A DNA stretch of 63,976 bases, filler included, from Malassezia furfur (Eukaryota), in assembly GCA_052055015.1 (NCBI GenBank). It is 4 parts of 4 records of this genome, joined end to end, with 100 filler letters (N's around TTAATTAATTAA, not from the genome) between each part and the next. Parts side by side here need not be neighbours in the genome. Positions count along the whole stretch, not along the records: positions 17,286 to 34,456 come from JBQJIT010000231.1; 3 more parts are not named here. The stretch is one strand, 5' to 3'. The notes under the pieces were generated by a model. The model worked only from the letters and a program-made list of their open reading frames with translations. It was not told the origin of the DNA and made no database searches. Both the position numbers and the translations under genes were made by a program. Shown here piece after piece: positions 28,453 to 31,007 of the stretch (positions are counted from its first letter, which is position 1; each line of letters opens with the position of its first letter).

Positions 28453-28582
28453 TGCCGCTGGTCCGGCATTCCTTTGTTTCTTTAAACACGTCTCCCTGCT
28501 GGTCTGGGAACAGTTTCTTCTTTGGTCTGGAACCACCCACTCTTGTTTCATACGATGCCCTCCTCTACTTCGGCTGGTCCGA
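28453..28582 (+). promoter_or_regulatory. Cluster of four CUGGN-loop RNA hairpins (Smaug/Vts1 recognition element-like), 5' region of gene 28555
   Basis: TGCCG-CTGGTC-CGGCA 28453-28468; TCCCTG-CTGGT-CTGGGA 28493-28509; TGGT-CTGGA-ACCA 28523-28535; TCGG-CTGGT-CCGA 28570-28582. Confidence 0.65.
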
Positions 28583-30384
28583 TGTTCTCGAAGCGAACCT
28601 CGCTAATCCGGTGGAGCCTCTACGCGGTGGTATTTGCGGCATTGACTGCCCAGAGCGCCTTGGCCCTCCCGGCCACCAATGCCCATAAGCTCGACGCCCG
28701 CAACGAAAAGCACAGCTCCAGCTCGGCCTCCCATGCGTCAGCATCACCCTCGCTCGCGCACATCGTGCAGGGCCAGAGCGACAACAAGAACATTGGCGGC
28801 GGTGCTTCTGTTGGCCTGGACCAGATCTTTGGCAAGGCCGTCGACGGTGCCGTAAAGGTGAACGGCGACATTGACTTCGTGCACACGTCGGTGTCTTCGA
28901 ACGAGCATACGGTGATGACGACGGGATCGTGGTCATCGCGCTCGCACTCGTCGTCGCATCGCCCGACGCATTCGGCGTCGCACCCGTCGTCGCACAAGCA
29001 CTCGCATTCGCACTCGACGTCGCACTCGTCCAAGCACTCGTCCAAGCACACCTCGCACGTTCACCACCCCAGCTCAGAGCATCACAGCCACTCTTCCCAC
29101 CACCACCACCACAAGTCGAAGCACCACGGCCATGCGTCGCATTCGTCCAAGCACACGTCGACCCACAAGTCGTCGCACAGTTCGGCAACCCCGACAGGTG
29201 CACACAACTTCCAAGTGACGAGCTCGTCGTCGACCAAGAGTAAGACTTCACTGAGCCTGGGCGGTTTCTACCGCATTGGTCTGGAGAAGGGCAGCAAGGC
29301 GCAGCGCATTCAGAGCAGCTCCAACGACAACGACTCTTCGATGTCGGGTGGCCGTGTGGCTGCTGTGGAGTCCGCGAAGGAGCCGGGAGGCAACCTGCCC
29401 AACCAGTCGGTGACCACCAACAACCCCAACTATGGCTTCATTGAGGCGCAAAACGACTTATACGCCATCCGCAAGTGGGCCGGTGATCTGAAGATGCTCA
29501 AGAGCAAGTCGGACCGCAACGAGACCTTGATGGCGCTTTTCAATGCCGCATCGCGCTACTATCCCGATGTGGATACCAAGGTGGTGGTCCGTGTGATGCT
29601 GGCCGACATCAAGGCCGAGTCCGACTTTGAGTCGAGCAACAGCAGCCCGGGCCGCATTGACTCGGGCAACAGTCTGGGTCTGGTGCAGGTGAGCCCATCG
29701 GGCGCATCGAACGAGCTGACCGAGTTCAAGAACGCGGTCATGGTTGATGCCAACCGCTACTCGTGGACGATTGGTCGCGGCACGAGCTCGGAGGTGAAGA
29801 GCGGCGGTGAGTCGGTCCTTGGGCCGCTTCTGGACATCAAGACTGGCAAGAAGCTGAACCTGGATGGCCTGAGCAAGAGTGACTTGGATCGTCCTTGGAT
29901 CAACCTACACGTCGCCATGTGGCTCCAGTCGAACTACGCCCGTACGGGTAGCCAAGATCCCTCGACGTGGAACAAGGTGGCCAAGGCTAGCAAGGCGGTG
30001 CGCTCTGCCTATCAGCCGGCCTTGGAAGAGATCCTGGGCTCATCGAGCTCCTCAAGCTCCTCAAACTCGTCCTCGAGCTCTTCGGACTCGTTCAGCCAGA
30101 GCTCTTACTCGTCCAAGCTCAGTTCGCTGGAGTCGTCGCTGAAGGGCAAGAACCACCAGAAGGTGACGATGGCGACCGCTCTTGGTTCGTGGGTGGCCGG
30201 TGCTGCTGTCGACAGTGGTGGCTACCAAACGTCGGGCGATGACATCAGCTCGCAGTATTTCAGCCACATCGCCGAGGGCCTATCTGTGATGTACACGGGA
30301 AGCACCAAGCACAAGAGCAAGTATGGCAAGGATTGGCTCGATAACATCGTGCTCACGCCCGGGTTGATTGACTACAACAAGTAA
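28555..30384 (+). CDS. Secreted protein, His/Ser-rich linker plus C-terminal lysozyme-like (GH23/SLT-like) domain; tandem paralog 1
   Basis: Signal peptide ending ALA-LP; motifs IKAESDF, GLVQVSP, DLDRPWINLHVAMWL and ALGSWVAG. The CDS is certain; the function is inferred. Confidence 0.6.
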   Translation: MPSSTSAGPMFSKRTSLIRWSLYAVVFAALTAQSALALPATNAHKLDARNEKHSSSSASHASASPSLAHIVQGQSDNKNIGGGASVGLDQIFGKAVDGAVKVNGDIDFVHTSVSSNEHTVMTTGSWSSRSHSSSHRPTHSASHPSSHKHSHSHSTSHSSKHSSKHTSHVHHPSSEHHSHSSHHHHHKSKHHGHASHSSKHTSTHKSSHSSATPTGAHNFQVTSSSSTKSKTSLSLGGFYRIGLEKGSKAQRIQSSSNDNDSSMSGGRVAAVESAKEPGGNLPNQSVTTNNPNYGFIEAQNDLYAIRKWAGDLKMLKSKSDRNETLMALFNAASRYYPDVDTKVVVRVMLADIKAESDFESSNSSPGRIDSGNSLGLVQVSPSGASNELTEFKNAVMVDANRYSWTIGRGTSSEVKSGGESVLGPLLDIKTGKKLNLDGLSKSDLDRPWINLHVAMWLQSNYARTGSQDPSTWNKVAKASKAVRSAYQPALEEILGSSSSSSSSNSSSSSSDSFSQSSYSSKLSSLESSLKGKNHQKVTMATALGSWVAGAAVDSGGYQTSGDDISSQYFSHIAEGLSVMYTGSTKHKSKYGKDWLDNIVLTPGLIDYNK

Positions 30385-30431
30385 ATCAGTCGCCTTGGGT
30401 AACATCTTTGTACATATGCTCCTGACTTGTT

Positions 30432-30498
30432 GCAGGCGGTCGTTCTATGGACGCGTTCGGACGTGAATGCTGGTCATTCACGAAGGATTACCGCCTGC
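30432..30498 (+). promoter_or_regulatory. 3'-UTR stem-loop capped by a CUGGU pentaloop (SRE-like)
   Basis: Inner CGTGAATG-CTGGT-CATTCACG (30462-30482, 8 bp perfect); outer GCAGGCGGT/ACCGCCTGC (9 bp). Confidence 0.7.
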
Positions 30499-30874
30499 CT
30501 GCGTACATTTCCCCCTATAATCCGGTTATTTTCCCTTATTGCTAGCCTTTGGGTCTAACTCATTCTGCATAGCATGTATAGCAACTCGTTTCCCCTCATC
30601 TTTACGACGCCGAGTGTGATTGCGCCCTCGTTGAATTCACGTGGGTTATATATAGATGTTGGTTCAACACTTCCTTTGTGTCCTTTCGGTGGAGGCGTCA
30701 GGTTTTTCAGGCACGGAACTAAATGTCATGTAATATCTATTGTTGAACCGTGCAGGATAAGCTTAGCAGGCGAGACCATATAGAAAAAGTACACGGTGAC
30801 ACTCCCTGTCCCCTACCTTGACAGGTCTCCTGCTCACTTGTTGTTGCTCCCCTCCCTTCCCCCAATTCGTTTCC

Positions 30875-31007
30875 TGCCGCTGGTTCGGCATCGTTTCTTT
30901 TATCTTACGCGAATCACTGCTGGTCAGTGACGTTTCGATTGTCATTACCTTTCCACTTTGGATCATACATTTGCAAGTATGGTCTCCTCTACATCGGCTG
31001 GTCCGAT
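30875..31007 (+). promoter_or_regulatory. Cluster of three CUGGU-loop hairpins (SRE-like), 5' region of gene 30979
   Basis: TGCCG-CTGGTT-CGGCA 30875-30890; TCACTG-CTGGT-CAGTGA 30914-30930; ATCGG-CTGGT-CCGAT 30993-31007. Confidence 0.7.

Follow-up and report, generated by a model that had tools for sequence, protein, structure and literature searches.

Smaug-type hairpins around the start codons of a GH23/SLT-like gene family in Malassezia

Two tandem genes in a stretch of Malassezia furfur DNA (assembly GCA_052055015.1) are accompanied by a series of short hairpins whose loops begin with CUGG. The stretch, referred to below as the window, is 63,976 nucleotides long, filler included, and consists of four parts joined end to end. 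The genes (paralog 1 and paralog 2) encode proteins resembling secreted enzymes of the GH23/SLT superfamily, and most of the hairpins are located in the 5' leaders and over the first codons. Judged from sequence comparison, the hairpins belong to the Smaug recognition element (SRE) type and are kept by selection as RNA elements. We further consider it probable, though not assured, that they are under selection as SRE-type elements in the mRNAs of secreted GH23/SLT-like enzymes of Malassezia, where the SAM domain of a Vts1/Smaug protein would read them and bring about repression.

Hairpins at the gene starts

The initial annotation had placed eight sense-strand hairpins at the two genes, and all eight are present (Table 1). 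By direct reading and by a script scan, seven are uninterrupted Watson-Crick stems of 4-8 bp on the + strand with a loop beginning CUGG. In the remaining one, hairpin B of paralog 1 (28493-28509), the pair next to the closing pair is a U·U mismatch, and folding the hairpin alone yields only -0.4 kcal/mol. Hairpin A of paralog 1 gives -6.0 kcal/mol on its own, with a pair probability of 0.80 in context, and has orthologous hairpins in five other leaders. Hairpin D of paralog 2 pairs with a probability of 0.87 in context, and the 3'-flank hairpin of paralog 1 folds at -8.0 kcal/mol. The two leaders had been said to keep the motifs in the same order, which holds for A, B and D and fails for C, present in the paralog 1 leader and absent from that of paralog 2.

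Searching metagenome contigs with the family alignment gave ten loci, seven of them with a complete gene start. In the comparisons the window paralogs are labelled W_P1 and W_P2, and L004, L005 and L006 count as one lineage, with 91-98% mutual identity. At the protein level, L001, L002, L004/5/6 and L008 share 54-62% identity with the window and 59-74% between lineages; the L009 protein is about 40% identical. Among bacterial and archaeal genome contigs, none of 93 pattern matches was confirmed as a relative.

Every Malassezia-type locus carries the same hairpins in the same order, with A, B and C in the leader and D on the [ST]AGP codons. Relative to the ATG, hairpin A is found between -155 and -102, B between -104 and -28, and C, where present, between -67 and -32; the L002 sequence is cut off upstream. 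Hairpin D occupies positions between +10 and +28 on [ST]-A-G-P and begins at +10 to +16 in all six genes that keep it. A fifth hairpin, E, with the loop CGGGU, follows at about +30 over the codons H-R-G-S-M in L002 and L008, and 3'-flank hairpins occur 77-127 nt past the stop codon in W_P1, L001 (+127) and L009 (+77). An unguided MAFFT alignment of the leaders (251 columns, mean column identity 50%) has its invariant columns in hairpins B and D and at the A of the ATG, and in no other place. Loop positions C1, G3 and G4 are unchanged across orthologues while the stems differ, and in B and D they are among the invariant columns.

The 3'-flank hairpin of L009 (2354-2374) has an 8-bp stem, the loop CUGGC and a folding energy of -13.8 kcal/mol; no clear 5' hairpins were seen at this locus, which has 61% G+C and probably comes from outside Malassezia. 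Given L009, the link of the gene family with SRE-type hairpins may extend beyond the genus.

Hairpins with a CNGGN0-3 loop and at least 4 bp number three in each 215-nt window leader and three in the 594-nt intergenic stretch, against dinucleotide-shuffle means of 0.03, 0.03 and 0.10. The observed count was reached in none of 2000 shuffles in each case, which bears out the expected density above shuffled background; the same is true of the L004 and L008 leaders, and the L001 count was reached in 1 of 2000. Outside these genes, the window and four loci together hold a background of 105 CNGG hairpins in 229,046 nt. At that rate 0.63 would be expected in the 1,384 nt that make up the leader zones of seven genes, where 19 are found. 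Among sense-strand hairpins with at least 4 bp and any loop, 18 of 31 in six leaders begin their loop with CNGG, compared with 67 of 2512 in the window and with 0 of 31 on the antisense strand of the same leaders. When CNGG hairpins of at least 5 bp are counted over 17 kb, all three of L006 (both strands) sit at the GH23/SLT-like gene, as do three of six in L001 and four of eight in L008. The motif GCTGGT[CT] has 23 copies on the + strand of the 64-kb window, seven of them within the 2.65 kb from 28400 to 31050.

A chance cluster, or a functionless relic of gene duplication, would sit well with the paralogous leaders of the window and with the stem of hairpin A, which is identical in both. It does not account for counts that no shuffle of the window leaders reached, nor for hairpins that persist with changed stems at such protein and leader divergence, and we regard its probability as negligible.

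Covariation and selection on RNA

Both sides have changed in four of the seven pairs of hairpin D, and pair 5 is G-C, A-U, C-G or U-A depending on the lineage. The covariation score of this hairpin is 0.340, compared with 0.114 in shuffles, and was reached by none of 500; pairing is seen in 79.6% of cells and falls to 49% or less once the 3' partner is slid. In hairpin A, both sides have changed in two of five pairs, and the corresponding values are 96.7% and at most 43%. Hairpins B and C show covariation in their outer pairs. The pairs of hairpin B were counted by a loop-anchored script; the MAFFT alignment misplaced its 3' arms because the loop lengths differ. The compensatory change originally pointed out between the two window copies of this hairpin holds up (paralog 2 has A-T where paralog 1 has C-G), although the U·U mismatch accompanies it.

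It had also been suggested that the shared SAGP codons are conserved at the RNA level, and the orthologues support this. Only A-G-P (GCU GGN CC) is fixed in the hairpin D peptide; S or T precedes it and M, I, S or N follows, with pairing kept. Since the residues beside A-G-P vary and their bases nevertheless pair, the [ST]AGP peptide would be a by-product of the RNA element, and its conservation is most simply explained by selection on RNA. As far as the comparison goes, RNA structure is what selection keeps in the hairpins of this gene family.

The repeats might instead act as DNA, in the form of palindromic transcription-factor sites in the promoters. Such sites would suit the inverted repeat CACTG...CAGTG of hairpin B, which is kept in six of seven copies, and the placement of the leader hairpins relative to the transcription start is one that we infer. 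The arms of A, C and D, however, vary and covary around a fixed centre, which is the reverse of a dimeric DNA site. The asymmetric CNGG centre is always on the coding strand, with 18 sense and 0 antisense cases, and D and E lie inside the open reading frame (ORF), with more copies past the stop codon. A role as DNA sites is hardly credible to us.

TATA-like boxes are found at least 100 nt upstream of hairpin A in the leaders, and the box at 28340..28347 makes it probable that transcription of paralog 1 starts upstream of all its leader hairpins. Upstream of the first start codon (AUG1), six genes are ATG-free for 193-313 nt (28362-28554 and 30728-30978 in the window), where 1.5-2.8 ATG would be expected per 200 nt. 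This fits long 5' untranslated regions (UTRs) kept clear of upstream starts. Hairpins D and E are certainly within the mRNA if the ORF is read from its first ATG, and we infer that hairpins A-C and the 3' hairpin are transcribed.

A second in-frame ATG (AUG2) follows directly after D or E in every orthologue, just before a signal-peptide-like M-[ILF]-R-W; its positions in the window are 28582-28584 for paralog 1 and 31024-31026 for paralog 2. AUG1 has A at -3 in all six hairpin-bearing leaders, and the context of AUG2 is weaker, with C at -3 in both window genes. A regulated choice between the two starts is a possibility. The database copies P0001 (paralog 1, 600 aa) and P0012 begin at the second Met.

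This arrangement could also serve a purely structural, protein-free tuning of initiation, in which leader hairpins slow scanning and D pauses the 40S subunit, favouring AUG1 over the second AUG. The uniform start of D at +10 to +16 and the second ATG of every orthologue would be in keeping with such a role, and hairpins about 14 nt downstream of a start codon were reportedly found by Kozak in 1990 to enhance its recognition. Structural tuning leaves unexplained, however, why loop positions C1, G3 and G4 stay invariant while stems change, and why the same loop recurs in the 3'-flank hairpins. The AUG1 context is, moreover, already good with its A at -3, and a good number of the stems lack the strength to hinder scanning. 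We consider this explanation quite improbable.

Table 1 Hairpins, TATA-like boxes and coding sequences (CDS) of the two paralogs, in window coordinates.
Feature	Position	Strand	Sequence	Description
TATA-like box, paralog 1	28340..28347	+	CTATATAG	215 nt upstream of paralog 1 ATG; 113 nt upstream of hairpin A
Hairpin A, paralog 1	28453..28468	+	tgccgCTGGTCcggca	5-bp stem, loop CUGGUC; -102 from ATG
Hairpin B, paralog 1	28493..28509	+	tccctgCTGGTctggga	6-position stem with one U·U mismatch, loop CUGGU; degenerate copy
Hairpin C, paralog 1	28523..28535	+	tggtCTGGAacca	4-bp stem, loop CUGGA; U:A closing pair
CDS, paralog 1	28555..30384	+		609 aa; signal-peptide-like N-terminus, His/Ser-rich middle, GH23/SLT-like C-terminal domain
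Hairpin D, paralog 1	28570..28582	+	tcggCTGGTccga	4-bp stem, loop CUGGU; codons S-A-G-P, +16 to +28
3'-flank hairpin, paralog 1	30462..30482	+	cgtgaatgCTGGTcattcacg	8-bp stem, loop CUGGU; 78 nt past stop
TATA-like box, paralog 2	30777..30783	+	CATATAG	202 nt upstream of paralog 2 ATG
Hairpin A, paralog 2	30875..30890	+	tgccgCTGGTTcggca	5-bp stem, loop CUGGUU; position -104
Hairpin B, paralog 2	30914..30930	+	tcactgCTGGTcagtga	Perfect 6-bp stem, loop CUGGU; position -65
CDS, paralog 2	30979..32979	+		666-aa ORF
Hairpin D, paralog 2	30993..31007	+	atcggCTGGTccgat	5-bp stem, loop CUGGU; codons S-A-G-P, +15 to +29

Candidate reader and mode of action

In an SRE, a CNGGN0-1 loop sits on a stem of 4 bp or more, and in vitro selection (SELEX, systematic evolution of ligands by exponential enrichment) with Vts1 returned 23 clones, 21 of them with an oriented G:C top pair (PMC3045596). 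The Vts1p target loop has been described as 4-5 nt long, position 3 being a G and positions 1 and 4 complementary to each other (PMC2683727). A broader loop consensus, CNGGN0-3, comes with a preference of the fly, yeast and human proteins for CUGG, a G 5' of the loop and pentaloops (PMC4053848).

In the 27 distinct hairpins of the gene family, position N2 holds U 21 times, A 4 times and G twice; C does not occur there. Twenty-one stems close with a G:C pair whose G is 5', and most pentaloops have U at N5. All loops fit CNGGN(0-3), with 5 nt in 18 hairpins, 6 nt in 8 and 7 nt in 1. Stems contain at least four contiguous pairs (G·U allowed) in 25 of the 27; the exceptions are B of W_P1, with its U·U mismatch, and D of L002, with 2 bp. 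The assignment to a Smaug/Vts1-type cis element made in the initial annotation has thus held up, as every sequence and structure feature of the SRE is found and is conserved, with covariation, in orthologues from five other diverged lineages. A search of Rfam gave 0 matches at E <= 1 in 28200-31200 on both strands. A loop of the Ire1 type (regulated Ire1-dependent decay), which has 7 nt with G at positions 3 and 6, was ruled out, since 26 of the 27 loops have 5-6 nt and the lone 7-nt loop has U at position 6.

Like the SREs of Drosophila nanos (3' UTR) and Hsp83 (ORF), the Malassezia hairpins combine a short stem, a CNGGN0-3 loop that is mostly CUGG, a 5' G, pentaloops and multiple copies (PMC4053848). 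They differ in lying mostly in the 5' leader and first codons, in belonging to a basidiomycete yeast and in being known here from sequence. With the target hairpins of S. cerevisiae Vts1p they share the consensus and the bias towards an oriented G:C closing pair (PMC3045596, PMC2683727). For the yeast protein, however, the literature examined, which includes papers in part, describes no target in which an array of three to five phylogenetically conserved sites surrounds the start codon.

In the mechanism that we propose, each mRNA would carry three to five hairpins, with A-C in the ATG-free leader, D (and E) in the first 10-50 nt of the CDS and, in some genes, one further hairpin in the 3' flank. 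The putative reader is the SAM domain of the Malassezia Vts1/Smaug orthologue, which would recognise the C-N-G-G loop shape on a G:C-closed stem, and binding of several copies would silence the mRNA. As in yeast and flies, silencing may proceed through a 4E-binding protein and the Ccr4-Not deadenylase, both recruited to the mRNA; yeast Vts1 recruits Ccr4-Pop2-Not and the 4E-binding protein Eap1 (PMC3468468, PMC2836565), and fly Smaug causes repression and decay of its targets (PMC4053848). With sites between the cap and the AUG and others 10-16 nt 3' of it, the bound protein should, in addition, block scanning and 48S assembly. Inhibition of this kind is known from the iron-responsive element (IRE) and its regulatory protein (IRP), where a protein on a loop-specific hairpin in the ferritin 5' UTR blocks initiation from a single cap-proximal element. 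The Malassezia case differs from IRE/IRP in loop, protein and kingdom, and in having an array instead of a single element.

By analogy with these systems and with other fungi, Vts1 is a plausible reader, and its binding and repressive effect at these hairpins would follow the known pattern. The basidiomycete C. neoformans has a Vts1 that moves to processing bodies at 37 °C and is a candidate calcineurin target (PMC5017699). The N. crassa protein GUL-1, which binds mRNAs for cell-wall remodelling, has VTS-1 as a core partner (PMC10512220). Vts1 of the rice blast fungus M. oryzae is a mitogen-activated protein kinase substrate required for infection (bioRxiv 10.1101/2023.08.19.553964).

A more specific version is offered tentatively, as possible but doubtful. 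Here, a Malasseziaceae-wide array of three to five Vts1 sites, spanning the leader from cap to AUG and the first codons, would act as a gate on the translation of a secreted GH23-like enzyme that lyses the wall or peptidoglycan. With Vts1 bound, scanning and the use of AUG1 would be blocked, and release of Vts1, for example by signalling as suggested by the Pmk1- or calcineurin-targeted Vts1 of other fungi, would open the gate and might shift the use of AUG1 and AUG2. Were this true, a fungal Vts1 would have its first conserved physiological target module, and the Smaug family its first case of action from a 5' leader.

Several observations count against the proposal of SRE-type elements read by Vts1. 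At the level of selection, stem B keeps the sequence of its inner five pairs in six of seven copies, with no covariation there. The covariation sample comprises five to seven sequences, three of which (L004, L005 and L006) are close relatives. The invariance of the loop is partly built into the scan, which searched for C-N-G-G, although the leader alignment is free of this bias. At the level of folding, whole leaders fold no better than shuffles (z = +0.99, -1.01 and +0.13). Hairpins B, C and D of W_P1 and C of L004 are weak, at 0.0 to -2.4 kcal/mol alone, and pair probabilities in context span 0.00-0.98, with values near 0 for about half of the hairpins. The closing pair of hairpin C is always U:A and never G:C. 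As for the reader, no SAM-domain match was found among window ORFs of at least 180 aa, and the Smaug sites known from other systems are for the most part in ORFs or 3' UTRs, those of the fly mostly in ORFs (PMC4053848).

Some of these points could equally be met by selected RNA hairpins that another, so far unknown loop-binding protein of Ustilaginomycotina reads, in which case localisation, targeting to the endoplasmic reticulum or activation would be possible outcomes. The loops are more uniform than a minimal SRE, as seen in the bias at N2 and N5, placement in the 5' leader is unusual among Smaug-family sites, and the Malassezia Vts1 is itself a putative reader. The additional uniformity (CUGG, 5' G, pentaloop), on the other hand, coincides with the measured secondary preferences of the fly, yeast and human Smaug proteins, and the literature examined gave no other fungal RNA-binding protein with such a specificity. 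Ssd1-type motifs, for their part, are absent from four of seven Malassezia-type leaders. We regard a different reader as rather unlikely and retain Vts1/Smaug as the candidate.

Ssd1 recognises a linear motif, CNYUCNYU. It was tried as a candidate and rejected: the motif has a background density of 0.91 per kb and occurs 0 times in the 200-nt leaders of L002, L004, L006 and L008 and once or twice in those of W_P1, W_P2 and L001. One such site, CATTCCTT (28466-28473), directly follows hairpin A of paralog 1 and has no counterpart in the other leaders. The Ssd1/GUL-1 system of yeast and Neurospora resembles the present one in having multiple 5'-leader sites on mRNAs of secreted wall-active enzymes (PMC10512220); it differs in that its motif involves no hairpin loop and is not conserved in these leaders.

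Encoded proteins and biological meaning

Paralogs 1 and 2 are arranged head to tail on the + strand, downstream of an aspartyl-protease gene, and M. psittaci and M. yamatoensis are likewise annotated with a tandem pair of paralogs. Both proteins begin with a short N-terminal extension followed by a hydrophobic signal-peptide-like stretch, M-[IL]-R-W-S-L..., and their C-terminal domain of some 340 residues is kept across Malassezia and reaches, at about 40% identity, into smut fungi. The named homologue closest to paralog 1 is a hypothetical protein of M. brasiliensis, with 91% identity in the C-terminal 340 residues. The middle of paralog 1 (window 28930-29200) is a low-complexity, His/Ser-rich region with SHSSSH, SKHSSKH and HHHHH runs and is very variable between orthologues.

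The description of the pair as secreted and lysozyme-like can be kept as a reasonable, moderately supported label that falls short of proof. The window proteins have no match to any Pfam family, the SLT profile PF01464 included. Two homologues were compared with Pfam SLT; P0020 (42% identical) scores 23.4 bits, above the cut-off of 21.3, and P0024 scores 17.5 bits. An AlphaFold model (predicted local distance difference test score, pLDDT, of 75.9) was compared by VIA-align, in which the best match is a GH23 chitinase (Z 9.3, root-mean-square deviation 3.4, 144 aligned). The bacterial lytic transglycosylases Slt, MltC, MltE and MltF follow with Z 8.4 to 7, and ranks 1-20 all belong to the GH23/SLT superfamily. 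Foldseek of the model against the PDB gave nothing at E <= 0.001, with E-values of 0.26 or worse. Residues E86 and S87 of the first catalytic motif ('ADIKAESDF') are invariant in 18 of 18 aligned family sequences, and E86 is presumably the catalytic Glu of the GH23/SLT domain. The sole PDB match of the family profile, mitoribosomal protein mL77, falls on the non-catalytic part and was judged irrelevant. The GH23/SLT-like family is not among the entries in the cell-wall gene table of the M. sympodialis genome paper.

The word regulon, also used at the outset, applies to this one gene family and goes no further. No second convincing hairpin-bearing target gene was found within the window. Three other hairpins of the window may be listed. 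An 8-bp hairpin with the loop CUGGG on the - strand (11124-11144) lies within a CDS and could be an SRE-type site or chance; the gene has a short intron (gtacgt...cag) and a Walker-A-like GESAAGKTQ, and looks like a RecA/Rad51 paralogue. A 6-bp hairpin with a CUGGG loop (53988-54004, +) is antisense to a neighbouring photolyase gene, and another 6-bp hairpin with a CUGG loop (2897-2912, +) lies where ORFs overlap on both strands, neither with a significant Pfam match. The N runs of the window form three pairs of 44 bases (17186-17285, 34457-34556 and 51703-51802), about 17.27 kb apart, and resemble masking more than assembly gaps.

Both the type of element and the protein family are familiar, and the novelty lies in the target gene family, with a genus-wide, covarying array at the 5' leader and start codon. 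A literature search limited to main articles turned up nothing about targets of Vts1 in Malassezia or Ustilaginomycotina. Fungi conserve Vts1, and its natural targets and purpose are poorly defined; the physiological role of Vts1p has been called unknown (PMC2683727). An array of textbook sites offers a concrete and easily mutated target for testing the role of Vts1, and allows Smaug-type sites to be tested for action from the 5' leader. That selection on RNA would explain the conserved [ST]AGP also matters for annotation, given that paralog 1 has one database copy that takes the second Met as its start. Since Malassezia is a commensal of human skin and the encoded proteins appear to be secreted enzymes resembling lysozyme, regulating them may matter for the remodelling of the cell wall or for competition with the bacteria of the skin.

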